Shown: positions 2 to 52,147 of the stretch, in pieces
How the letters are laid out: each line of letters starts with the position of its first letter
Numbering within the stretch: position 1 is the stretch's first letter
Origin: Candidatus Heimdallarchaeota archaeon
GTDB lineage: Archaea; Asgardarchaeota; Heimdallarchaeia; Heimdallarchaeales; Heimdallarchaeaceae
DNA length: 64,000 nucleotides
Direction: 5' to 3'
Assembly: GCA_030603365.1 (NCBI GenBank)
Contig: JAUVXV010000001.1
Location: 160,001-224,000 of the forward strand
Translations under genes and position numbers: made by a program
The notes under the pieces: generated by a model
What the model saw: the letters and a program-made list of their open reading frames with translations, nothing else
Told to the model about the DNA's origin: nothing
Databases searched by the model: none

Positions 2-1606
2 TAAAATAAGTGTAGCTTGTGTTGATGGTGGTGTAACACCGTGGTCAACACAGGCAGTTATAATTGCTTCTAGTAGTTTTATTTTCATTTTATCTTCTGG
101 TAATTCACCTACCAGACATAAGTAAATTAAATCTGAAAAAGAAAGCTGGTCTTGATTATGATTATCAAGTTTTTGCGAGTTTCCAAAATAAATAGAAAGG
201 TATCTTAGAACTCTTCCCAAAGAATATGCTGCAACTCTAGACGGATCTTTCTCTGAGTTAGCGAAATTTGATAATTTTTTATCAAGCAAAAGGAACGTTC
301 CTATGATTTTCGAAACATCAGATTCTTCAGGATTTTTATCGAGATGAAGAAATTCTTCCTTAGCTGCATTAATAGCAATTTTCTCGAGCCCTAACAGTTC
401 ATTCTTGGGAAACTCACCTTTTGTAAGTAGGTATGTTGTTTCTAATAACCCCTTTTTTGCAATGATATCCTGTAGGCTGTATCCTTTGATTACAAGATTA
501 TTAGGTAAAACTTTAGTTATGAGTGTACCCCAAGTGGGTTCCGGAGATTTAGCATCCCATTTCTTCTTCATCCTTTCATAATAATCTTCCACTCTGAAGT
601 ATGTTTGATTAAGTTTAGATTTTACAGCTTTAATCAGATCATGTTGGTGGTTTACAACAATAGCTCCTGCTTTTTCTAGAAGTTCTTTCTTAGAATTAAA
701 GGTACCGTATTTCTGGCCTGGAGTTATTACTGCTCCTGCATGTCCCATAGTTTTTCCTTCAGGTGCATTAGCTCCTGAAATAAGTGCAACTAAAGGTTTG
801 GAATATTTTTTGGGGTGTTCAATCATATCTTGAGCCAATAATTCTTCTTGCATTCCTCCTATTTCTCCGGCAACAACCACCAAGTCAGTATTTTCGTAAT
901 TCATTACTAAGGAGACAAGGTCAACAAATCTTGAACCTATGGCACCATCTCCTCCAACTCCTAATACACCATTTTGAGCTATCCCTGCACTAGCTAGAGC
1001 ATCGGACATATGATATAGAATTGCACCGCTTCTTGATAGAATAGTGACTCCTTTTGGTCCAATTCCTCCTTCGTCAGTAATCTGTGCTTGGAAAATATCT
1101 GGGAGCATTCCAATTTTTATTCCTTCGGGCGGAAAGATTATTCCTGGTGTATTTCCTCCAAATAAGATGGTTTTATGTTTTCGTGCTTCCACCAAAATAT
1201 CTCTGACATCTTTTAATGGAATGAACTCAGAGATTAGGACGATTATAGGAACTCCTGATCTTATTACTTCAATTGTTGCATCCTTAGCTGTTGAATAATG
1301 TCTCCAGATACTAGCAACTGCAATATTAGGGTGGTTCATGACAGCTTCTTCTGCTGAGGCATATACTGGAATTGTTTCATGTACCTTTGTTCCACTTCTA
1401 CCTGGTGCAACTCCGCAAGTTACATTTGTACCATATTCCATCATCAGCTGAGCGTGTCTTGTACCTTGTCTTCCTAGTCCTACAATCATCGTTTCTATTG
1501 ATTTTGACTGATCTATTTTTTCTGCTAGTTCTGGTCTTACATGTTTTATAAGATAATCGAGCAATCCTTGATTTGCTTCTAGCTTCTCCTTCTTCATTTC
1601 ACTCAT
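2..1606 (-). CDS. Succinyl-CoA-synthetase alpha-like domain fused to a citryl-CoA-lyase/citrate-synthase-like domain (ATP-citrate lyase alpha-type architecture); truncated by the window edge
   Basis: Not in the ORF track because it runs off the left end; translated by hand from ATG 1606, which overlaps the upstream TGA (ATGA). It has a Rossmann start (MIVGLGRQG), GGNTPG, LSRSGAI, GVGGD, GEIGG and the phospho-His motif MGHAGA, followed by WGTLITKV..IKGYSLQDII and ACVDHGVTPPST of the CCL/CS fold. Confidence 0.85.
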   Translation of the reverse strand, partial: MSEMKKEKLEANQGLLDYLIKHVRPELAEKIDQSKSIETMIVGLGRQGTRHAQLMMEYGTNVTCGVAPGRSGTKVHETIPVYASAEEAVMNHPNIAVASIWRHYSTAKDATIEVIRSGVPIIVLISEFIPLKDVRDILVEARKHKTILFGGNTPGIIFPPEGIKIGMLPDIFQAQITDEGGIGPKGVTILSRSGAILYHMSDALASAGIAQNGVLGVGGDGAIGSRFVDLVSLVMNYENTDLVVVAGEIGGMQEELLAQDMIEHPKKYSKPLVALISGANAPEGKTMGHAGAVITPGQKYGTFNSKKELLEKAGAIVVNHQHDLIKAVKSKLNQTYFRVEDYYERMKKKWDAKSPEPTWGTLITKVLPNNLVIKGYSLQDIIAKKGLLETTYLLTKGEFPKNELLGLEKIAINAAKEEFLHLDKNPEESDVSKIIGTFLLLDKKLSNFANSEKDPSRVAAYSLGRVLRYLSIYFGNSQKLDNHNQDQLSFSDLIYLCLVGELPEDKMKIKLLEAIITACVDHGVTPPSTQATLIL

Positions 1607-2910
1607 CCCCGTATCTCCTGTTGTTTCTTAATTTTGAAGCCGTATTCAATTCCATCTCTAATTACATCAGCCATTATTTTTTGATTTCCTACAACTATAT
1701 GCAAGTCTTCTAATGGGTCTGGAGTTTCCTTTTTTGCCTTTTCAAGATACTCTCTTGCAGCTGCTAAATCAGTTCCAACCATCCTACCAAACACAGGAAT
1801 CATTCTTCTTTTTTGCAAATGCCTATCTCTCAGAGCCATAATTAGACCACGGATGAAAATATCACAACTTGAAATTCCACCAAATCTACTAGTTATGATT
1901 AGACCAGTTGTTGGATGATCCATGAGCAGATGAAACATATCAGCTACTTTGCTTAGAGAAGGGCCTCCTCCACTATCCATGAAGTTTATGGGTACTACTT
2001 TTCCTTCGAAATATCTATCACCGACATTCACAACCTCATCAATTGAAAAGATCCCATACCCCGCTCCTCCTGGTACTAAAGCAACATATAGCTTATCCTT
2101 TTCTTTAACAAAATTCTCTGGGTTTTCTAATAAGTCAAGATATGGGAATCCAATTTTATATGCTTTCGCTTCAAAAATCGTTTGTTCTGATACATCGTGT
2201 CTTTTGCTTTGGGGATCAATACCTATAGATTTCAACAAAGGTTCTTGTCTGTATAAACTATTATCATCCAGTACTATTTTAGCATCGGCAGCAATTATTT
2301 GATTATTAGAAGTAAGAATTAATGGATTTATTTCACATATTTTAGCTTCTATATTTTGAAACGCGGAATAAAGTGATTTTATTGCGTTTTTCAACTGATT
2401 TTTAATTTCTGGTTTATCTGAAAAATTCTTTGATAAGAAATCAACAGCTTCTTCTGCAACAGTATCTTCTAACTCTTTTGCATTATCAAAAATTGTTTTT
2501 TTCCAGATTAATTCAGGATTAGTTTTAGCCACTTCTTCTATATCTATACCACCACTAGCAGAGGCTACTACAACTATATCAAATGTAGCAGGATCTGTTG
2601 TTACTGCTAGGTATATCTCATTGGAAATATCTACAGCTTCTTCTAGCAAAATTTTCTCAATCGGATATCCACGGATTGAGGATTGAAGCATCTTTCTAAT
2701 AATCTCTTTTGCTTCATCTATGCTATTTGGTTTTTTGATGCCTCCGGCCTTTCCTCTTCCTCCAATTAGAACCATTGCTTTAACCATTAGAGGAAACGAT
2801 AATGACATCTTTTCAATTTCCTCTAGTTTTTCAATTACTCCTAATTGCTTGGGAATTTTCAATCCAAATTTGTCAAAAATTTGTTTAGCTTCATACTCAT
2901 ATAATTTCAT
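1603..2910 (-). CDS. ATP-grasp acyl-CoA synthetase beta subunit (SucC / citryl-CoA synthetase-like)
   Basis: MKLYEYEAK, VKAMVLIGGRGKAGG, GGIDIEE, EINPL, ADAKIVLDDN, NFMDSGGG, FGGISSCD. Confidence 0.88.
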   Translation of the reverse strand: MKLYEYEAKQIFDKFGLKIPKQLGVIEKLEEIEKMSLSFPLMVKAMVLIGGRGKAGGIKKPNSIDEAKEIIRKMLQSSIRGYPIEKILLEEAVDISNEIYLAVTTDPATFDIVVVASASGGIDIEEVAKTNPELIWKKTIFDNAKELEDTVAEEAVDFLSKNFSDKPEIKNQLKNAIKSLYSAFQNIEAKICEINPLILTSNNQIIAADAKIVLDDNSLYRQEPLLKSIGIDPQSKRHDVSEQTIFEAKAYKIGFPYLDLLENPENFVKEKDKLYVALVPGGAGYGIFSIDEVVNVGDRYFEGKVVPINFMDSGGGPSLSKVADMFHLLMDHPTTGLIITSRFGGISSCDIFIRGLIMALRDRHLQKRRMIPVFGRMVGTDLAAAREYLEKAKKETPDPLEDLHIVVGNQKIMADVIRDGIEYGFKIKKQQEIRG

Positions 2911-2921
2911 TCTTTCACGCT

Positions 2922-4775
2922 CTAAGATGAATACAGTTGTTGATAATAGTTGATTAATCCCCCGGCATTAAAGATTTTTAATAATTCTTCTGGTAGCTTG
3001 GGAAATGTGTAATCTTGATCTCCATTCGAAATTGTACCAGTTTCTAGATTAATATCGACAGGATTTTCTGAATTGAAGTTATTGACAAACTCAGAATGAA
3101 CAATGATTGGTAATCCTTGATTAATCGCTGATCTGTAAAATATTCTAGCTACAGATTTTACAATGACAGCTTTTACACCTGCAGAAGCAAGCCCTACTGC
3201 AGGATGTTCTCTAGATGATCCACATCCAAAGTTCTCTCCACCTACGATTACATCCCCTTCTTTAACTCTAGCTGCAAAAGATTCATCTAAGCCTTTGAAT
3301 AAATGTGGTACAATCTTCTCTCCCTCTGATGACTTGATATCATAAGTTAATCCACCTGCAAACATTTGATCTGTATTAAAATCATTGACATCTTTATAGT
3401 CCCATACATTATGTTTGCGTCTATTATCATCTGGTGTAATTGTAAGAATTTTTGTTTCAATATCTCTTTTTCTTAACTCTATAGGGTTTTTCCCTTCTAT
3501 AACTTCAAGTGACAGGTACTTTCTTGGATCTACTATTCTTCCTTCTATTACAGAAGCAGCAACAGTAGCTGGAGATGATAAATAAACTGAGGATTTCTTA
3601 TTTCCCATTCTTCCTAAGAAATTTCTATTTGCAGTGGATATGACATTCCACCCGTCAGCAGGAATGCCTTGACCTTTGCCCAAACATGGACCACAACTAC
3701 ACGAAAGAATTGTTGCTCCTGCACTAACAAGAGTTTCAATTATACCTTTTTCTAGTGCTTTTTGATATATTTCTGTGGAAGCTGGAGCAACTAGAAATAC
3801 TACTCCTTGTTTAATTTTTTTACCTTTCAAGATTGAAGCGGCTATTTCTAAATCGTCCAATCGTGCATTTGTACATGTTCCAAGAAATGCCTGATGTATT
3901 TCAATTTCATCAAGATTTTTAGCATATTCTTCATTATCCACTTGGTGAGGTACTGCAACTAAAGGTTCCAAATCATTCAGTTGTAGCGTTACTTCAGAAC
4001 TAAAACTTGCATCCTTATCTGACCAGAACATTTCTTCTTTGTTCAAGAGTTTTTTATTGCCATGTTTTTCTTTCAACCACTCTATAAGAATCTCGTCTGG
4101 AGGGAAAATAGCTGTTTTTGCCCCCATTTCAGAAGCTAGATTGGCAAGTGTCATTCTTTCTGAGACAGAAAGTGTCTTAACTCCATTTCCATGGAATTCA
4201 ATCGCTTGGTATGTTGCACCTGATGCTCCAACTCTGTTCATTAACCATAGAGCTATATCTTTAGCATAGATTCCTGGAGATAATTTTCCATGCAAAATTA
4301 CCTTAATTGTTTCCGGAATTCTGAACCAGGTTTTACCTGTTAACCATAAACCAGCTGTTTCTGTTCTATCAATACCTGCTGCAAATGTAGCAAACGCACC
4401 ACTTGTACAAGTGTGGGAATCAGAACCGACGACCAACATATTTGGAAGTGCATGATTTGACATTAACTGATGGCATATTCCTCTTCCTTCGTCATAGAAA
4501 TTTGTAACATTATGCCGTATCACTAATTCTCTAATGCTCTTGTGATCATTGGCAATCTGTACACTTGTGGGGGGTGAATCATGATCAAGAACAATAACTA
4601 AACGATTAGGATATTTAATTTCTGTTCCACCCATTTTTTGGAATGTTTTTACAATAGATGCTGAATTATCGTGTGAAAGGATCAAATCAGGTTCTGCATA
4701 AACAATCGTTCCTGCTTTGACATCCATTCCTGATTTAAATGAAAAGAGTTTTTCTGAAAATGTTTTTCCTCCCAT
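2922..4775 (-). CDS. Fused large+small subunit aconitase-family hydratase (homoaconitase Lys4-like)
   Basis: SHDNS, VLDHD, GRGICHQ, GSDSHT, GTCTN, SCGPC, NRNFLGRMG, then a swivel domain with NTDQM and NFGCGSSREH in the same ORF. Confidence 0.88.
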   Translation of the reverse strand: MGGKTFSEKLFSFKSGMDVKAGTIVYAEPDLILSHDNSASIVKTFQKMGGTEIKYPNRLVIVLDHDSPPTSVQIANDHKSIRELVIRHNVTNFYDEGRGICHQLMSNHALPNMLVVGSDSHTCTSGAFATFAAGIDRTETAGLWLTGKTWFRIPETIKVILHGKLSPGIYAKDIALWLMNRVGASGATYQAIEFHGNGVKTLSVSERMTLANLASEMGAKTAIFPPDEILIEWLKEKHGNKKLLNKEEMFWSDKDASFSSEVTLQLNDLEPLVAVPHQVDNEEYAKNLDEIEIHQAFLGTCTNARLDDLEIAASILKGKKIKQGVVFLVAPASTEIYQKALEKGIIETLVSAGATILSCSCGPCLGKGQGIPADGWNVISTANRNFLGRMGNKKSSVYLSSPATVAASVIEGRIVDPRKYLSLEVIEGKNPIELRKRDIETKILTITPDDNRRKHNVWDYKDVNDFNTDQMFAGGLTYDIKSSEGEKIVPHLFKGLDESFAARVKEGDVIVGGENFGCGSSREHPAVGLASAGVKAVIVKSVARIFYRSAINQGLPIIVHSEFVNNFNSENPVDINLETGTISNGDQDYTFPKLPEELLKIFNAGGLINYYQQLYSS

Positions 4776-4787
4776 AGTTTAACCTCC

Positions 4788-5294
4788 TTAAAATCTTCCA
4801 CCCAATTTTAATAATCCCCCAGCATTCATTATATCTAATACTGGCTGAGGAATCTTCTTGCATTTCATTTGTGCATTTTTAGTTTTGTTTAACAATACAG
4901 ATTGAGAGATATCTATTTCTAACTCGTCATCTACATCTATCACAAAATCTGCAATATCAGGAACCTCAACAAGAAGTAATCCTGCATTTACGGCATTACT
5001 ATAATATATGGGACCAAATGATTCACCAATTATAGCTTTAATTTTATGCGCTAGAAATCCTGTTACTGCCTGCTGTCGAGTAGAACCTTTGCCGAAATTC
5101 TTACCTACCACTAGAATTTTATTTGAATTGTCCTCTTTACCAAAATTCTCAAACCCTTCTAGATTGCCAAAAATATGCGGTTTGATTTCTTCTGGATTGT
5201 GGATTGTTAACAATGATTGATGGAAGATTTGATCTGTATCGATATCATCAACTCGAACTAATGTCACGTCTCCACTAATGTTTTCTTTGCTCAT
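4788..5294 (-). CDS. Aconitase-family hydratase small (swivel) subunit, LeuD/HacB-like
   Basis: DDIDTDQI, VGKNFGKGSTRQQA, ESFGPIYYSNAVNAGL, AGGLL. Confidence 0.88.
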   Translation of the reverse strand: MSKENISGDVTLVRVDDIDTDQIFHQSLLTIHNPEEIKPHIFGNLEGFENFGKEDNSNKILVVGKNFGKGSTRQQAVTGFLAHKIKAIIGESFGPIYYSNAVNAGLLLVEVPDIADFVIDVDDELEIDISQSVLLNKTKNAQMKCKKIPQPVLDIMNAGGLLKLGGRF

Positions 5295-6559
5295 TTTTCT
5301 TCACTAACCTTGGGGATTGCTATTTTACCTTCTATTGCCGTCGCAGCAGCTATCGCAGGACTTGCTAAATAAACGTCTGCTGGTCCAATTTTACCTTGAG
5401 TATTACGATTGCCTGTAGTCAATGTAACAGCTGTTTTTCCACCAGTTAAACCATATTGTCCCTTTGCACAAGTGGAACAACCAGTACCAAAGAAATTACC
5501 TCCTGCCTCTAAGATTACAGACATATCCCCCTCAGAATTTATTGTGACAAAATCTTCTCTAGTTGCAGGAACGATACCAAAACGGACATTTGGGTCAACC
5601 TTTCTACCTTTTAGAACTCTTGCTACTTCATGAATGTCTGTATAACTTCCGTTTGTACATGAACCCACAACAATTGAACTTATTGGAGTGTCCACGACTT
5701 CTTCAATGGGTTTAACATTGTGCGGATGAGGAGGACATGCTATATACATTCCTAGATCTTCAATATCTATTGTTAATTCTGATGAATAATTTGCATTATC
5801 ATCTGCAGTAATAGTTTCAATCTCTATTCCGAGTTTCTTATAATAATCAGCTGTAATTGAATCTTGAGGAACAAAGCCTATCATACCTGAAGCTTCTGTT
5901 ATGAGAGAGCAAAGAGTTACTCTGTCTTCTATTGATAACTTAGAAATGATGTTACCATAAAACTCAACTGACTTTCCTGTTATCCCATATTCATGTAGTT
6001 GTTTGAGAACATAAAGAGCTAAATCTTTAGATGATGTTGGCCAACTATAATCTCCTTCCAAGTAAATTTTAACTGTTTCTGGAATTTTGATCCATGCTTT
6101 CCCAGTCTTCATTGCAAAAGCAAGCATAACATCACCTGCCCCCAGACCTAAAATGCCTAAAGCTCCAAGTATATTATAATGGCTATCTGCACCAAAAGCA
6201 ATATCTCCTGGTTTCGAAAATCCTCTTCGGAATAATAGATGAGAACCTATCCCAGAACCTAAATCAGTAACCTTAATATTATGTTCTTTTGCAAAAACCC
6301 TTATTTTTTCTTGATCTACGGCGTGTTTTGGGTCATTGCCATAGGGATAACAATCGGGTGTGAAAATTATTTTATTACTGTTAAAAACCTTGGAATCAGG
6401 ATAATTTTTTTGAAATAAATCAACAACTTGAGGACCTGCATAATCTCTTGCGGTAACTAAATCTAGATTTATCCATACAATATTTCCAGGAAAGATTTCC
6501 TCTTCTGATGCTGTAGTATGTGATTTGATGATTTTTTCTACAAGCGTAAACCCTTTCAT
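5291..6559 (-). CDS. Aconitase-family hydratase large subunit, LeuC/HacA-like
   Basis: TLVEKI, GIGSH, GADSH, KIPETV, GSCTNG, GCSTC, TGNRN, YLASPA. Confidence 0.88.
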   Translation of the reverse strand: MKGFTLVEKIIKSHTTASEEEIFPGNIVWINLDLVTARDYAGPQVVDLFQKNYPDSKVFNSNKIIFTPDCYPYGNDPKHAVDQEKIRVFAKEHNIKVTDLGSGIGSHLLFRRGFSKPGDIAFGADSHYNILGALGILGLGAGDVMLAFAMKTGKAWIKIPETVKIYLEGDYSWPTSSKDLALYVLKQLHEYGITGKSVEFYGNIISKLSIEDRVTLCSLITEASGMIGFVPQDSITADYYKKLGIEIETITADDNANYSSELTIDIEDLGMYIACPPHPHNVKPIEEVVDTPISSIVVGSCTNGSYTDIHEVARVLKGRKVDPNVRFGIVPATREDFVTINSEGDMSVILEAGGNFFGTGCSTCAKGQYGLTGGKTAVTLTTGNRNTQGKIGPADVYLASPAIAAATAIEGKIAIPKVSEEK

Positions 6560-6633
6560 TTATGTCAATTTCATCGATTAAAAGGGAAGTAATAAGGATA
6601 TCTCTATGTATTGTTAAATAGAGACTCACTTCA

Positions 6634-7767
6634 TTACAACATCTTTATTTTATCACAAATACCTCTTGCCATTTCAGAAGTAGTAGTGCTTCCACCCATG
6701 TCATATGTGCGATATTTTCCTTCTGCAATTACAGCAGCTACAGCTTCCTCTATTTTTTGTGCCATTTCTTTTTCTCCCAACCAATCTAACATCATTTTAG
6801 CTGCTAATATTTGTGCTATAGGATTGACTTTATTCATGCCTACATACTTTGGTGCAGATCCATGAGTAGGTTCGAAAACAGCAAATTTCTCCCCAATATT
6901 ACCTGAACATGCGAATCCTAATCCACCAATTAACTGAGCAGCTAAATCAGAAACAATGTCACCAAACATGTTGGAAGAGACTAAAATACCATAATTCTGA
7001 GGGTTCTTAACAAGCCACATAGCCATCGCATCTATGTTTGCTTCCCATAATTCTATTCCTTCATATTCCTGTATTAGTTTGCGAGCTTCTCTCACCATCA
7101 AACCACTTGTTTCTCTGATAACATTTGGTTTTTCAACAACTGTAACTGTAGGATAATCAAATTCTTTGGCGTAATTCATGCTTGCTTTAAGAATGCGTCG
7201 TACCCCTTTTCTAGTAAATATTCGAGTGGATATAGCAATGTCTTCAAGGTTGGTATCAGCAAACTTTTTCGCTTTAGGATGATGTTTAATAAAAGTTTCC
7301 ATTACCTCATCTGGAACGGGATGCCATTCAATTCCTACATAAAGCCCCTCAGTATTTTCTCTAAATACTACTAAATCAATATCATCTCTGTAGTTAAGAG
7401 AATTGCCTGGATAAGCTTTACAAGGGCGTAAGTTAACATATAAATCAAATAATTGTCTTAATCTAACAATTGGACTGAAGTAAATCAGTCCCTTTCCTTG
7501 TAATTCAGGTACAAGTTCTTTCTCAGCTTCTTCTTTAGGTTTAGATGTAATTGCTGAAAATAAACAACAATCTGAATTCTTCAATAATTCTATCGTTCTG
7601 TCTGGAAGGGGATTTCCTTCTTTGCACCAGAATTCCCAACCTATATCTCCGTGTGTGTATTCTGCTATTTCACTGAATCCAACAGCATCTAAAACATTCA
7701 TTGCTGCTTCAGTGACATCTATACCCACGCCATCTCCTGGTAAAACTGCTATTTTGTATTTCTTCAT
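6634..7767 (-). CDS. Beta-decarboxylating dehydrogenase, (homo)isocitrate dehydrogenase-like
   Basis: IAVLPGDGVG, SPIVRLRQLFDLYVNLRP, RENTEGLY, KPNV, NMFGDIVSDL, FEPTHGSAP. Confidence 0.9.
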   Translation of the reverse strand: MKKYKIAVLPGDGVGIDVTEAAMNVLDAVGFSEIAEYTHGDIGWEFWCKEGNPLPDRTIELLKNSDCCLFSAITSKPKEEAEKELVPELQGKGLIYFSPIVRLRQLFDLYVNLRPCKAYPGNSLNYRDDIDLVVFRENTEGLYVGIEWHPVPDEVMETFIKHHPKAKKFADTNLEDIAISTRIFTRKGVRRILKASMNYAKEFDYPTVTVVEKPNVIRETSGLMVREARKLIQEYEGIELWEANIDAMAMWLVKNPQNYGILVSSNMFGDIVSDLAAQLIGGLGFACSGNIGEKFAVFEPTHGSAPKYVGMNKVNPIAQILAAKMMLDWLGEKEMAQKIEEAVAAVIAEGKYRTYDMGGSTTTSEMARGICDKIKML

Positions 7768-7794
7768 TGTTTTATGCCTCTTGTATATTTTTTG

Positions 7795-8358
7795 TCAGTT
7801 TTTTTCGAATATTTTCTTTATTGGGGAGAAACAGAGGAAATCAACACGGTGAATTATATCAACTTCAGGTAAACGGTTAATTTTATCTCCTTCTTTGCTG
7901 TGAAAAACTATGGCCTGTCTTACAACGATTGGAAGGTTAAATTCACTTACTATTTCTAAACCCATTGCTGGATGACGAATACGATTGCCTTCCTCAGTCT
8001 GTATTATTTTTCCCGATGAATCTCTTTCATATTCTGTGAATTTTCCAACATCGTGAAGTAAGGCCCCCGCTATTAATTCATCTCTGTTTAATTTGTCCCC
8101 TAAACCTAATTTAACATATGTATCGTAAGTAGAAATGCACATCTGTGTGACAGCTCTTATATGATCTACTAGACTTATCTGTGCGACTTGGTCATCCGAA
8201 ATCAGCTCAGGAATTAACAATGTAGCTGGAATGTACTTAAAATCATCTTCAGTCCATTCACCAAGAGTAATCGCTTTCTCAAGCGATTTTTCCACTTTAT
8301 TACGTAGATCTTCACTATTAATTTCATCAAGTTCTGGAAATAGGTTCCTAATCTCCAT
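7795..8358 (-). CDS. HD-domain metal-dependent phosphohydrolase
   Basis: H..HD..H..H..D pattern: DHIRAV, LLHDVGK, RHPAMG, FHSKEG, HRVD. Confidence 0.85.
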   Translation of the reverse strand: MEIRNLFPELDEINSEDLRNKVEKSLEKAITLGEWTEDDFKYIPATLLIPELISDDQVAQISLVDHIRAVTQMCISTYDTYVKLGLGDKLNRDELIAGALLHDVGKFTEYERDSSGKIIQTEEGNRIRHPAMGLEIVSEFNLPIVVRQAIVFHSKEGDKINRLPEVDIIHRVDFLCFSPIKKIFEKN

Positions 8359-13726: not shown

Positions 13727-14248
13727 TTGGTGATTTGCTTGTATGGTGCTGATCAAATAAATACAATTCTTCATGAGATTATAACAAGTGATGCTAATAT
13801 TAATCATGTAATATTAGCTGATAAAACAGGTTTAACACTAGCTTATTCCTCACGATTTGCCTTTGATGAGTTTGAAACAGAGGCGTTAGGTGCTATTGCT
13901 AGTGCAGTCTATTTAGCTAGTGAACAACAAGGAACAAATGTAGGTCTAGCGGAACTAGACATTATCATATCAGAATTTTCTGATGGTCTAATTTTAGTAG
14001 CGAGTTGTGGAAGTACTGTTTTGTGTCTGATTACAGACACTGGAGTAGCTTTAGGTATGGTTAGAAGAACCATGAAAATAGCAGCCGAGAAAATTAGAAA
14101 TATATTGGATGTTGAAGCTAAGCCAGTTACTACACCTGAAGCTCAACCTGTTGTAACACCGCAACCAGTTGTTGCAGAGGAAAAGAAAGTTCAAGATGAG
14201 TTCATCTCCGATTTAGAATTAGCTTTAAGGGAATTAGAACAATTTTAA
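13727..14248 (+). CDS. Roadblock/LC7 (MglB-like) protein with a Pro/Val/Thr linker and C-terminal amphipathic helix
   Basis: VILADKTGLTLA, ALGAIASAVY, IISEFSDGLILV, VALGMVR; alternative TTG start at 13739 after GGTGA. Confidence 0.85.
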   Translation: MVICLYGADQINTILHEIITSDANINHVILADKTGLTLAYSSRFAFDEFETEALGAIASAVYLASEQQGTNVGLAELDIIISEFSDGLILVASCGSTVLCLITDTGVALGMVRRTMKIAAEKIRNILDVEAKPVTTPEAQPVVTPQPVVAEEKKVQDEFISDLELALRELEQF

Positions 14249-14271
14249 ACACACTAAAAGTGTAAGGATGT

Positions 14272-15108
14272 TTGATGAATATGGCTGCTCCTACTGGAGG
14301 AATAGAGAAAATAGGAAAGAAAGACGAATCCAAAGATTCAAGGGGTGAATTGATTTTAACAGGAATTCGCTCTTTAGATCAGAAACTTGGTATGGAAATG
14401 GCAAAAAGAAGAGGTATACCTCAAGGATCTTTTATTCTTGTTAGTTACCCTTCTGATACAGTTATTCCCACTTTGTTCATCCAGAGAATTCTTCTAAACT
14501 GGGCTAAAAAATCTAGTGATAATGTGATTTTCTATGTTCATAGTGGTCGTCCCTATGATCATGTTCAAAGCTCATTTAAAGCATATAATTGGGATGTAAA
14601 ACCCTTTGAAGGAAAAAACTGGTACTTTGAAAATATGTTTGATTTATCTAGTACATCAATGACTTCTGCTTTAAAACTAGGAAGGATTGAAGTTAAGAGA
14701 AAGACCTATGTAAATAGAATTATTGACCGCATGTATCACGTAAAAGAATCTCAAAATAAACAGTGTTTCAGTGTTTTTGATGATTTACTCTGGATGAAAG
14801 AAGATCAATTGGATGAAGATTCGAATGCATTAATAACTTTCCTTAAAAGTACTTTAATGAGTCTTACTAAAATAGGTGGAGTACATTTCTTTTTACTTCC
14901 TCAGGGTGTTTTAGACCCAGTAGCTGAAAGAATAATCATGAATGCTGCTCAAGGAATATTCCACTTTACGAGAAATTCTGTGGGTAGTAGAATTAAAGAT
15001 ACTTTTGCGATAACTAAACTCATGGGAGTAGCTTTTGTTAGTGAAACCTTGGATATCACTCCATCAGAATCAGAAGGTTTCAAAATAGAATCAACAGCTA
15101 AAATATAG
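14272..15108 (+). CDS. KaiC/RAD55-like RecA-fold protein with degenerate Walker A
   Basis: TGIRSLDQKLG..GIPQGSFILV start, Walker-B-like VFDDL, AQGIFHF, ITKLMG, C-terminal GFKIE; no GxxGxGKT. Confidence 0.72.
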   Translation: MMNMAAPTGGIEKIGKKDESKDSRGELILTGIRSLDQKLGMEMAKRRGIPQGSFILVSYPSDTVIPTLFIQRILLNWAKKSSDNVIFYVHSGRPYDHVQSSFKAYNWDVKPFEGKNWYFENMFDLSSTSMTSALKLGRIEVKRKTYVNRIIDRMYHVKESQNKQCFSVFDDLLWMKEDQLDEDSNALITFLKSTLMSLTKIGGVHFFLLPQGVLDPVAERIIMNAAQGIFHFTRNSVGSRIKDTFAITKLMGVAFVSETLDITPSESEGFKIESTAKI

Positions 15109-15903
15109 ATGATATTAATGGAAGGTTATGAGAAAAAAACAACTGAAGAAGAACCTGAACTTATAGATATAGCATCTGAAATTTCAAAGCTTTCTGATGA
15201 AGTCAATGAGTTAAAAGATAATATGAAATCTCCAAAAAGGAGGGGAAAAAGCGAAAAATCCTCTAGATTCAATGACACTTCCAAAATTGAACTATCTCCA
15301 GCAATTGAATATGTAAACGAGTTATTAGAAAATTCTTCAGAAGCCATTATTTCTGAAATGAAATCAGAATTTTTCAGATTATTTAATTTTATCTCAAGTA
15401 TGTTCTCTGTAACACCATATCAATCAATAAACAGAACTATTCAAAAAGAAGAAGATTCTGATGATGAATTAACAGCTGATGATGTCATATTAGTATCAGA
15501 ATTTCGAAAGGAAAAAGAGATGTTACAACTTCTTCTTGATGAACGTGAATCATTAATTTACGAACTATCAGATCAAATTGTTGCTATTGAAGCTGAAAAG
15601 AAAGTGTTAGAAGATAAAATAGAAGAGATTGACACAGATAAAACAAAATGGTTAAAACAAAAGAATGTCCTCGAAAGAATTGTAACTTCAGATCCAAGGT
15701 TTAATATTATAACACTTCTAAGAAGAATGGGTGTAATAGCGCCTATACAACTATCTTTCGTTCTTGGAGTTTCTCTCTCACAAACCAGACGTTATATCTC
15801 TGAATTGGAACAACTGAAAATCCTTCAAGTAAAAGAAGATGGAACAGTTTCTCTACATACTGATTTTGACGAAGATACTATGAATATTAAAATTCAAGAG
15901 TGA
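15109..15903 (+). CDS. Coiled-coil protein with C-terminal winged helix
   Basis: Heptad-rich acidic central region; DPRFNIITLLRRMG..QLSFVLGVSLSQTRRYISELEQLKIL HTH. Confidence 0.65.
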   Translation: MILMEGYEKKTTEEEPELIDIASEISKLSDEVNELKDNMKSPKRRGKSEKSSRFNDTSKIELSPAIEYVNELLENSSEAIISEMKSEFFRLFNFISSMFSVTPYQSINRTIQKEEDSDDELTADDVILVSEFRKEKEMLQLLLDERESLIYELSDQIVAIEAEKKVLEDKIEEIDTDKTKWLKQKNVLERIVTSDPRFNIITLLRRMGVIAPIQLSFVLGVSLSQTRRYISELEQLKILQVKEDGTVSLHTDFDEDTMNIKIQE

Positions 15904-15939
15904 TAAAATAATAATAAAATAAAAAAAAGGATTTTGGGT

Positions 15940-16509
15940 TTATTGTTGAGCATAGAGTTTCTCATAGAAGAGAACGATATTTTTCAGTAAGGTTTTGAAA
16001 GCTTCATCAACATTCTCACCAGTCTTAGCAGAAGTTTCTATGTAAGGTACAGTAAATCCTGACCAGGCAGAAAGAGATCTAGCATATTCTTCTGATTGTT
16101 CTCTCATGATTGGATCTTTCGCAGTTGCTCGCAAATCAGATTTATTTCCAATCAAAACAATTGGAACAACTCTGTTACTATTATTTTTAAGAAGTTCAGC
16201 TATCCACGAAGGAATATTCTCAAAACTTGATCTTCTGGATATGTCAAAAACCAATAAACATCCAGAAGTACCGCGGTAATAAACTTCTCGAACAGCTGAA
16301 AATCTTTGCTGTCCTGCAAGATCCCAGATCTGTGCAACAAAATCTTGATCGTCTATACGTAATCGTTTAACAGCAAAATCTGCCCCTATAGTCATAGAGT
16401 ATCCGTCTTTAAAGCCCTCACCTAAATAGGTTTTACGAAGGCTTGTCTTACCTACGGCACCATCGCCTAGTAGGGTGATTTTGAAGATTTTCCGTTGTCC
16501 GGCGCCCAT
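15940..16509 (-). CDS. Rab-like small GTPase
   Basis: GDGAVGKT, TIGADF, WDLAGQQRF, YYRGT, LVFDIS, GNKSD, ETSAK; ATG 16509 preferred over TTG 16530. Confidence 0.93.
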   Translation of the reverse strand: MGAGQRKIFKITLLGDGAVGKTSLRKTYLGEGFKDGYSMTIGADFAVKRLRIDDQDFVAQIWDLAGQQRFSAVREVYYRGTSGCLLVFDISRRSSFENIPSWIAELLKNNSNRVVPIVLIGNKSDLRATAKDPIMREQSEEYARSLSAWSGFTVPYIETSAKTGENVDEAFKTLLKNIVLFYEKLYAQQ

Positions 16510-16700
16510 TTTATGTTCCCCTTTATACAATTTATTTATTCTCTCGGATACTATTTAAATTATTTGTTATTTCTCGTTTAGCAATGTTTACCCTTTTTTG
16601 GATAATAGAATCCTTACTTTGGTTTTTTGTCATATAATTTAATTGCTTCTTTTATCATCGGAAATATAAATTAAAAAATGGAAAAGAAGGTTTACTCTAC

Positions 16701-51490: not shown

Positions 51491-52147
51491 ATGCCTGTTC
51501 CTGATGATGTCTTAGCAAAAGAATATAGTCTTGTTATGGAAAGAGCTTATGCTTTTGAGCCTATAGATGGTGATTTAACAAGATGGAAAGGTTTTGTTCC
51601 CGTAATAACAGCTGATGGGGAAATATTTGTTGAAGCTTTAATGATTATTCCAAGTGATTATCCTTCATCTCCTCCAATAGTTCGTATTCTCAGTCCAATA
51701 ACACATCCAAATCTAACACAGGATAAAGTTCTAGAAATGAGGATGCTTGCACGATGGAGATCTAGTTATCATCTTTTCCAAGTAATAGTTGAAATGATTA
51801 GACTTTTCTCAAAAGTTCCTGCTCGTCTAGTAGATGAGAAACCACAGAGAATTGATCCAGAAGCTCATTTAAATCCTATAAAAGCTCAAGAAGAACAATT
51901 ATCCGTAATTCTTGAACAAAAGAAGAAAACACTTGCAGATATTAGAATTAAAAGGACTTCAGAGATATCAAACAGAGCTTTACAAAGAGAAAAGAAGATA
52001 CATCTTGAAGATGAGATTCTTGGAGTTGAAAATGAGCTTTTTGCAATTGAACAACAGTTTGAAGATTATGAAATTCCAAGTCATGAATTTGCAAAAAAAT
52101 ATTTTAATGTGAAGAAAAGGTTATATCTCTTAGAAGCAAAATCATGA
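51491..52147 (+). CDS. UEV domain + coiled coil + Vps23/Vps37-core-like helical hairpin (ESCRT-I-like)
   Basis: UBC fold (W.G, IPSDYPSSPP, THPNL) lacking the catalytic Cys; C-terminal FEDYEIPSHEFAKKYFNVKKRLY. Confidence 0.75.
   Translation: MPVPDDVLAKEYSLVMERAYAFEPIDGDLTRWKGFVPVITADGEIFVEALMIIPSDYPSSPPIVRILSPITHPNLTQDKVLEMRMLARWRSSYHLFQVIVEMIRLFSKVPARLVDEKPQRIDPEAHLNPIKAQEEQLSVILEQKKKTLADIRIKRTSEISNRALQREKKIHLEDEILGVENELFAIEQQFEDYEIPSHEFAKKYFNVKKRLYLLEAKS

Follow-up and report, generated by a model that had tools for sequence, protein, structure and literature searches.

A conserved seven-gene module of Asgard archaea that may degrade 2-oxoadipate through (S)-homocitrate

The DNA analyzed here is a 64,000-nt stretch (the window) of a Candidatus Heimdallarchaeota genome, G000, which is 89% complete; coordinates and gene numbers refer to the whole stretch. 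At its left end lie seven genes, encoding an HD-domain protein, a β-decarboxylating dehydrogenase (DH*), a two-subunit hydratase (hydratase B), a fused hydratase (hydratase A), an ATP-grasp CoA-ligase β subunit, and a ligase α subunit fused to a citrate-synthase-fold lyase domain (the fusion). Together they form a real, conserved and undescribed enzyme module; no paper describing the gene set was found in the literature searched, the coverage of which was incomplete. We put the chances at about even that the module runs 2-oxoacid chain elongation in reverse at the homocitrate level, via (S)-homocitrate, and so degrades 2-oxoadipate.

In the proposed pathway, DH* would reductively carboxylate 2-oxoadipate with CO2 and NADPH, yielding (2R,3S)-homoisocitrate, which hydratase A would dehydrate to cis-homoaconitate. 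Hydratase B, or an MmgE/PrpD protein in other lineages, would then add water to the face that aconitases cannot use, giving (S)-homocitrate. Using ATP, the ligase would form homocitryl-CoA via phosphohistidine 289, and the citrate-synthase-fold domain would split this into acetyl-CoA and 2-oxoglutarate, for a net reaction of 2-oxoadipate + CO2 + NADPH + ATP + CoA → 2-oxoglutarate + acetyl-CoA. The 2-oxoglutarate could continue through an oxidoreductase–Hdr/Flx–Tfr cluster on contig C3, succinyl-CoA synthetase, fumarase and malic enzyme. As G000 appears to ferment peptides, its 2-oxoadipate would probably derive from lysine. Substrates, stereochemistry, cofactor, direction and the connection to lysine are what we infer from the genes, folds, motifs and patterns of co-occurrence and exclusion observed.

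Four clues favor homocitrate over citrate: the coexistence of the module with canonical isocitrate dehydrogenase (IDH) and ATP-citrate lyase (ACL) sets, the DH* motif, the mutual exclusion of hydratase B and PrpD, and the need for a special hydratase on an (S)-homocitrate route. The fuller claim, that this would be an undescribed CO2-fixing catabolic route for 2-oxoadipate via (S)-homocitrate in Asgard archaea and uncultured anaerobes, falls just short of an even chance in our estimate. It would entail three novel activities: a reductase that carboxylates 2-oxoadipate with NADPH, an inverted-face hydratase on the aconitase fold, whose His-to-Cys form would be functionally equivalent to PrpD, and an ATP-dependent homocitrate lyase.

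Conservation of the module

The module was surveyed in 201 Asgard genomes, each at least 80% complete. Because the genomes counted are kin, the counts are not independent and should be read as a pattern rather than as a statistical test; G041 and G075 are one and the same genome. The fusion was found in 29 genomes, and hydratase B and DH* in 36 each. Every fusion-positive genome had DH* (29/29), and hydratase B was present in 28/29. Among the proteins scored, at least 561 belong to the fusion family at E ≤ 1e-20. The top 120 homologues came from many Asgard groups and from "Euryarchaeota" bins, the closest named ones being from Heimdallarchaeaceae, and the module also occurred in Thermoplasmata-like archaea, Bipolaricaulota and other bacteria. 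Because fusion, hydratase B and DH* lie on one contig within 8.4 kb in 18 other genomes of the host family, and the full seven-gene order is retained at five loci (L021, L097, L111, L112 and L115), the arrangement is not due to chance. Elsewhere, the module divides along reaction lines: G044 has the HD, hydratase B, ligase and lyase genes at one site and those of hydratase A and DH* at another. The sequence-only reading had hung on the set being kept together elsewhere, and the gene-neighborhood survey found it conserved across archaea and bacteria.

Plasmid searches did not find the module. A first contig scan with a single-protein query gave no matches, and a second was swamped by ordinary SucD matches and yielded only seven useful loci. 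In two single-contig genomes of the same Heimdallarchaeaceae-like family as G000 (G070 and G109), the whole module and malic enzyme were not found at the thresholds used, showing that the module is dispensable in one genus.

The ligase–lyase pair

The pair had been described as ACL-like, and its architecture is indeed that of a two-subunit ACL, with an ATP-grasp β subunit followed by an α–lyase fusion in which the phosphohistidine, H289, is invariant. It falls outside the ACL family, however, and its ligase parts resemble succinyl-CoA synthetase. The β subunit scored 168 bits with succinyl-CoA synthetase, 78 with citryl-CoA synthetase (CCS) and 49 with ACL, and the α domain 175 bits, versus 102 (CCS) and 98 (ACL). 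PF16114 (Citrate_bind) did not match the β subunit, compared with 305 bits for canonical AclB. The acid pocket is rewired: GGISSCD and GRMVGTD stand in place of the ANFT and RRGGPN motifs of canonical AclB, and PGGAGYG, SRFGGISSCD and GRMVGTD are nearly invariant. The pair likewise lies outside SucCD, scoring 244 and 212 bits on the NCBIfam models against cut-offs of 370 and 353; the NGAGL and NIFGGI motifs of SucCD are altered, the α subunit is not stand-alone, and G000 has a separate, true SucCD on contig C5.

The C-terminal 360 residues of the fusion had their best sequence match in the citryl-CoA lyase (Ccl) of Hydrogenobacter (6HXP, 127 bits), and PRK06224 models gave 210–214 bits, just below their cut-offs of 212–245. 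The predicted fold is that of a full-size citrate synthase (AlphaFold pLDDT 89.7; TM ≈ 0.72 to citrate and methylcitrate synthases). H522, H557, H605, R613, D654, R679 and R698, which make up the full set of residues for catalysis and substrate binding, were invariant in 37 homologues. With its catalytic and carboxylate-binding residues invariant, the lyase domain very probably acts on the CoA ester of a tricarboxylate. Even if the module worked on citrate, a ligase α subunit fused to a full-size synthase fold would be a candidate link connecting ACL, Ccl and citrate synthase.

At two Bipolaricaulota loci (L018:5888-8586 and L264:5302-8018), a fused CitD–CitE gene and citF immediately precede the ligase–lyase genes, and three citrate-type cleaving systems may coexist in these genomes. 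A lone citF CoA-transferase gene is convergent on the fusion gene at two Hodarchaeales-like loci (L098:12160-13701 and L247:6133-7713), where it adjoins indolepyruvate oxidoreductase and β-oxidation genes.

The dehydrogenase

DH* had been proposed to be a homoisocitrate dehydrogenase (HICDH), from the likeness of its motif FSPIVRLR to fungal Lys12. The motif does align with YSSPIVALR of S. pombe HICDH (PDB 3TY3); the loop S98-P-I-V-x-L-R104 and T74-S75 are HICDH-like, and the best PDB match was Thermus HICDH. SPIV.[LM]R was kept in every module dehydrogenase examined, and the IDHs of the same genomes keep S.N. DH* thus has the S-x-I-[VR] loop of HICDH without the IDH Asn, and showed neither IDH feature, the S-x-N for the distal carboxylate or a score above the model cut-off. 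The HICDH assignment did not extend to the curated cut-offs (best NCBIfam model AksF2 HICDH, 319 bits versus 540; iso_homocit_dh, 209 versus 680), nor to the cofactor site. There, DH* has HGSAPKY (K307-Y308) where Thermus HICDH (3ASJ) has the NAD-specific HGSAPDI, and since a KY-type motif signifies NADP(H) by the E. coli IDH rule, DH* looks NADP(H)-specific. These residue-level rules come from PDB alignments and general knowledge.

Two hydratases and the exchange of hydratase B for PrpD

Hydratase A has intact SHDN, DH and GSSRE motifs and Fe–S cysteines, and it passes the homoaconitase family models TIGR01343 (hacA_fam, 488 bits versus 386) and PRK00402 (496 versus 385). Of its suggested resemblance to Lys4, a raised affinity for the fungal enzyme remained, A-type large subunits scoring 287–298 bits on the fungal homoaconitase hidden Markov model versus 234–241 for other LeuC/HacA proteins. 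It failed the fungal Lys4 model itself (TIGR00139, 344 bits versus 530), as well as HacA_Meth, and its best solved relative is Methanocaldococcus HacA (4KP2). A quick tree, built with no characterized reference enzymes, placed hydratase A in a clade with support of 98 and hydratase B in a separate clade with support of 100. In two Bipolaricaulota (L265:7467-8765 and L266:7141-8457), an aconitase-family large subunit 44% identical to hydratase A was seen with no small-subunit gene alongside.

Hydratase B is unusual. Its large subunit retains three Fe–S cysteines and misses the family cut-off (324 versus 386 bits), with H-D changed to R38-D39 and D-H to D69-C70; the D-C pair occurred in all hydratase B proteins examined, and the small subunit has GS[ST]RQQ where GSSRE is expected. 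The histidine replaced in D-H we take to be the catalytic His101 of aconitase. H101 is listed as a key aconitase residue (PMC13147460).

Hydratase B was present at 29 of 91 loci and an MmgE/PrpD gene at 12, the two never together (0/91). At these 12 loci, which lack hydratase B, the MmgE/PrpD gene lies just downstream of the lyase gene, directly in 10 and after the HD gene in 2, and the partner, whether hydratase B or PrpD-like, is frequently directly behind the lyase gene. None of the 29 fusion-positive Asgard genomes had the PrpD-like gene; all four Bipolaricaulota had it (70–81% identity), and a B-type protein was found in none of them (0/4). In G044 and G045, which have hydratase B, the PrpD-like subfamily was not found. 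The PrpD-like partner scored 82–110 bits on PrpD models, against cut-offs of 458–950, and is nearest to IDS epimerase and cis-aconitate decarboxylase. Six distant PrpD-like representatives had no lysine genes nearby. At one PrpD-type locus (L182:394-3781), ETF/FixABCX-like genes lie directly upstream of the dehydrogenase. A different cluster (L278:1084-12487) contains two MmgE/PrpD genes, a split aconitase-family pair, an ICL/PEP-mutase-family gene and two HD proteins with 32–36% identity to that of the module.

The two-hydratase scheme of fungi and Thermus, invoked in the sequence-only reading, therefore stood in number and not in kind: the second enzyme is a His-to-Cys subfamily exchangeable with MmgE/PrpD rather than an ordinary aconitase. 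Enzymes with a citrate-synthase fold attach the acyl group on the si face; with 2-oxoglutarate as acceptor, by Cahn–Ingold–Prelog reasoning, the product is (S)-homocitrate, enantiomeric to the natural (R) compound. If cis-homoaconitate were bound as in PrpD, its hydration would also lead to (S)-homocitrate. The retention of hydratase B or PrpD beside an aconitase argues for a substrate that aconitase cannot take; an (S)-homocitrate route would need such an extra hydratase, be it PrpD or a rewired aconitase fold, and achiral citrate does not. The exchange thus points to (S)- rather than (R)-homocitrate. Citrate is isomerized by aconitase alone and homocitrate by two enzymes; aconitases perform trans elimination only, and ordinary aconitases already handle natural homocitrate (PMC3556520). 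The (2S,3S)-methylcitrate formed in the methylcitrate cycle requires syn elimination, which is why PrpD exists (PMC3556520).

These features also bear on whether the module acts on some other substrate or substrates, such as citramalate, methylcitrate, isopropylmalate or a longer homologue, which we consider highly improbable. It would fit with the failure of every module enzyme except hydratase A to reach a curated cut-off, with the kinship of the MmgE/PrpD partner to IDS epimerase and cis-aconitate decarboxylase, and with methylcitrate synthases being among the top fold matches. Yet the three arginines and histidines that bind the dicarboxylic 2-oxoacid in citrate synthases are invariant in the lyase domain, and the DH* motif differs from that of isopropylmalate dehydrogenase (IPMDH). 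Methylcitrate is further disfavored in that 2-methylisocitrate is a tertiary alcohol, which a β-decarboxylating dehydrogenase cannot oxidize.

Citrate or homocitrate

The same genes could instead constitute a citrate-level module, in which a non-canonical ACL (or ATP-yielding citrate synthase), two half-aconitases and an NADP-dependent IDH interconvert acetyl-CoA + oxaloacetate and 2-oxoglutarate. This would close the tricarboxylic acid (TCA) or reductive TCA (rTCA) cycle, or degrade glutamate by reductive carboxylation. We regard it as the main rival, though rather unlikely. Several observations nevertheless weigh on its side and against homocitrate. In the host family, as checked in G000 and two relatives, the module genes are the only aconitase-family, IDH-family and citrate-synthase-fold genes, and would be the sole tricarboxylate enzymes. 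G000 also has a 2-oxoglutarate-oxidoreductase-type enzyme, succinyl-CoA synthetase, a Tfr-like flavoprotein, fumarase and an Ldh_2-family dehydrogenase, so that on the citrate reading the module would close the TCA cycle, with the Ldh_2-family enzyme completing it. Most genomes of the order that do not carry the fusion encode a citrate synthase. The lyase motifs are nearest to a true citryl-CoA lyase (6HXP), the KY motif of DH* is of the NADP type seen in bacterial IDH, and E. coli PrpD dehydrates citrate. Bifunctional isocitrate/homoisocitrate enzymes exist, and some HICDHs with S-x-I motifs accept isocitrate; the DH* motif thus favors homoisocitrate and leaves isocitrate possible.

The surroundings of the module in other genomes point the same way. 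It abuts oxidoreductase–Hdr–Tfr genes in G253 and at L180, L184, L185 and L189, and adjoins SucCD at L019 and a divergent malate dehydrogenase (MDH) gene at L187. The clusters in G253 and at the four loci are homologous to an operon on contig C3 of G000 (G000:C3:1675-13626, L267), which encodes a four-subunit 2-oxoglutarate-type oxidoreductase, MvhD/Flx-like and HdrABC-like proteins, and a TfrA-like flavoprotein with its Fe–S partner. The argument that a family without MDH has no TCA cycle was rejected: among 31 genomes of the host family, the LDH/MDH family (PF00056) was found in none, but an Ldh_2-family dehydrogenase in 26 and malic enzyme in 28.

Against citrate stands redundancy with full canonical sets in four genomes. 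G045 has aconitase, NADP-dependent IDH, AclB and AclA genes side by side in addition to the whole module, G042 an IDH–AclB–AclA cluster and a separate aconitase, and G153 and G204 aconitase–IDH–AclA clusters; Borrarchaeum likewise has AcnA and IDH alongside the module. The citrate reading also gives no account of a second hydratase, drawn from either of two unrelated folds and nearly always kept. Nor does the module have the Asn of IDH or the citrate-binding motifs of ACL, ANFT and RRGGPN. Among four aconitase-family genes found in Borrarchaeum are a hacAB pair and hydratase B, but not hydratase A; HacAB could replace hydratase A only at the homocitrate level, a weak argument from one genome. 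The catabolic, carboxylating homocitrate pathway put forward in the sequence-only reading emerged as the best supported, through the coexistence of canonical citrate enzymes, the hydratase B/PrpD swap, and LysX and homocitrate synthase not being found, with the citrate level still alive beside it.

Direction and the connection to lysine

No HMGL-like (DRE-TIM) homocitrate synthase was found in a search of the whole G000 genome, which upholds the remark that no homocitrate or isopropylmalate synthase is visible in the window. LysX was found in 0/25 genomes of the genus; among another 25 genomes that have the module in full or in part, it was found in two and not found in 23. The combination that marks α-aminoadipate lysine biosynthesis, homocitrate synthase with a LysX pathway, was thus not found in G000 at its 89% completeness. 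Catabolism is likelier because LysX and homocitrate synthase were not found. G000 has seven 2-oxoacid oxidoreductases, glutamate dehydrogenase and ADP-forming acetyl-CoA synthetases, an apparent peptide-fermenter profile in which a retained seven-gene module would more likely be catabolic.

Run forward, the module would contain an ATP-yielding (S)-homocitrate synthase and convert acetyl-CoA + 2-oxoglutarate to 2-oxoadipate + NADPH + CO2, for lysine synthesis or as an oxidative route. We find this improbable. The chemistry is near equilibrium, the ACL reaction being listed at −8 kJ/mol (PMC13147460, Table 1); the lyase domain has the fold of a full-size synthase and keeps the synthase histidine H557; and Borrarchaeum combines the module with lysXYZJK. 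However, Borrarchaeum has its own LeuA/homocitrate-synthase-family gene beside hacAB, LysX has the sparse distribution given above, and the four AA_kinase matches in G000 resemble UMP, isopentenyl-phosphate and carbamate kinases rather than LysZ.

For the catabolic homocitrate pathway, the link to lysine is the weakest step. G000 encodes two paralogues of the saccharopine/lysine-dehydrogenase family (378 aa, 61% identical; C11:80824-81960 and C12:22281-23417; L109 and L108). The lysine-dehydrogenase-like gene does not track the module, however: it was not found at E ≤ 1e-50 in G153, G204 and G064, and it occurs in module-negative relatives. Its co-occurrence with the module was rejected as a lysine link for lack of specificity, and no lysine-catabolic gene lay inside any module locus retrieved.

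A cyclic "homo-TCA" scheme via glutarate and glutaconate was also considered and rejected on chemistry, since free glutaconate, when hydrated, would yield 3-hydroxyglutarate and not the 2-hydroxy isomer. The sole acyl-CoA dehydrogenase of G000 has glutaryl-CoA dehydrogenase as its best model, below cut-off (360/470).

The HD-domain protein

The homocitrate model leaves the HD protein unexplained. Its gene was present at 29/30 well-flanked loci, and its metal-binding His/Asp set (H66, H102-D103, H129, H153 and D173) was conserved in 116 homologues. Structural-cluster matches (Atlas) were to unnamed HD clusters only, and a single-sequence fold gave a pLDDT of 44, too low for use.

Gene organization and neighboring features

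The open reading frames reproduced the seven co-oriented genes and two ATGA overlaps reported earlier (Table 1); the gaps, in gene order, are 27, 74, −4, 12, 11 and −4 nt, both −4 nt gaps being genuine overlaps. The genes past the left edge, singled out earlier for inspection, showed that the fusion overruns the window by 548 nt, to position −547 (G000:C1:159453), and is followed by a Trm5-like methyltransferase gene. With that gene on one flank and PIN and eIF2-gamma genes upstream on the other, the module consists of exactly seven genes.

Table 1. Genes of the module, in gene order
Gene product	Position	Strand	Assignment
HD-domain protein, 187 aa	7795..8358	minus	PF01966
β-decarboxylating dehydrogenase DH*, 377 aa	6634..7767	minus	PF00180
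Hydratase B large subunit, 422 aa	5291..6559	minus	alignment to 4KP1, 4KP2
Hydratase B small subunit, 168 aa	4788..5294	minus	PF00694
Hydratase A, fused large + small, 617 aa	2922..4775	minus	homoaconitase family
ATP-grasp CoA-ligase β subunit (SucC-like), 435 aa	1603..2910	minus	succinyl-CoA-synthetase scaffold
Ligase α + citrate-synthase-fold fusion, 717 aa	1..1606, beyond left edge	minus	phospho-His H289

The neighborhood, with eIF2-gamma, RpoE and a roadblock protein, is consistent with an Asgard archaeon. At window positions 13727-16530 and 51491-52147, as judged from sequence, are genes for a roadblock-like protein, an adjoining small GTPase and an E2-like ubiquitin-conjugating protein, the usual Asgard eukaryotic-signature set. 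To the left of the window (G000:C1:140561-144196) lies a cluster of queC, queD, GTP cyclohydrolase and queE-like genes, assigned on the same basis to 7-deazaguanine synthesis.

Significance and comparison with known pathways

If correct, the proposed pathway would be a new route for amino-acid carbon in anaerobes, and a carboxylating, NADPH-consuming bypass of glutaryl-CoA dehydrogenation, a step likely to be unfavorable for hydrogen-producing fermenters. (S)-Homocitrate would join the list of metabolites, and the aconitase fold would be extended to a stereochemistry new to it. The module genes are currently labelled citrate synthase, succinyl-CoA synthetase or IPMDH, and the lyase could be mistaken for an ACL/rTCA marker in Asgard archaea, a group invoked in the debate over where eukaryotic ACL came from (PMC11976288). 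All parts of the module are soluble enzymes and cheap to assay.

By analogy, the module resembles both the citrate-cleaving arm of the rTCA cycle and a reversed lysine trunk. With CcsAB and Ccl of Hydrogenobacter thermophilus (6HXQ, 6HXP) and with AclAB/ACLY (6HXJ, 6HXI, 6POE), it shares an ATP-grasp β subunit, a phosphohistidine α subunit and a citrate-synthase-family lyase, in the domain order of the two-subunit ACL. Unlike ACL and CCS, its ligase parts are nearer to succinyl-CoA synthetase and lack the citrate-binding motifs, and its lyase domain is ≈100 aa longer than that of Ccl/ACL, with a complete synthase fold. The "type II ACL" postulated for tubeworm symbionts, proposed for rTCA autotrophy, was likewise unusual and tentatively named ACL (PMC3522073), a likeness drawn by description only.

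The first half of the α-aminoadipate pathway (homocitrate synthase, aconitase + Lys4/LysTU, Lys12/HICDH) and methanogen AksADEF have in common with the module a homoaconitase-family hydratase and a HICDH-like dehydrogenase, and the α-aminoadipate pathway likewise uses two hydratases per isomerization (PMC3556520). The module differs from them in having no DRE-TIM synthase or LysX, a second hydratase that is not an aconitase, KY where Thermus HICDH has DI, and a citrate-synthase-fold ligase–lyase that implies the opposite enantiomer to that of the α-aminoadipate pathway. The 2-methylcitrate cycle (PrpC, PrpD, AcnB) also combines a citrate-synthase-fold enzyme, a special first dehydratase (of the PrpD family in some module lineages) and an aconitase-family second hydratase, whereas the module has a dehydrogenase in place of methylisocitrate lyase, plus an ATP-dependent ligase. 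By the sequence features compared, the module belongs to neither ACL, CCS/Ccl nor the aminoadipate pathway.

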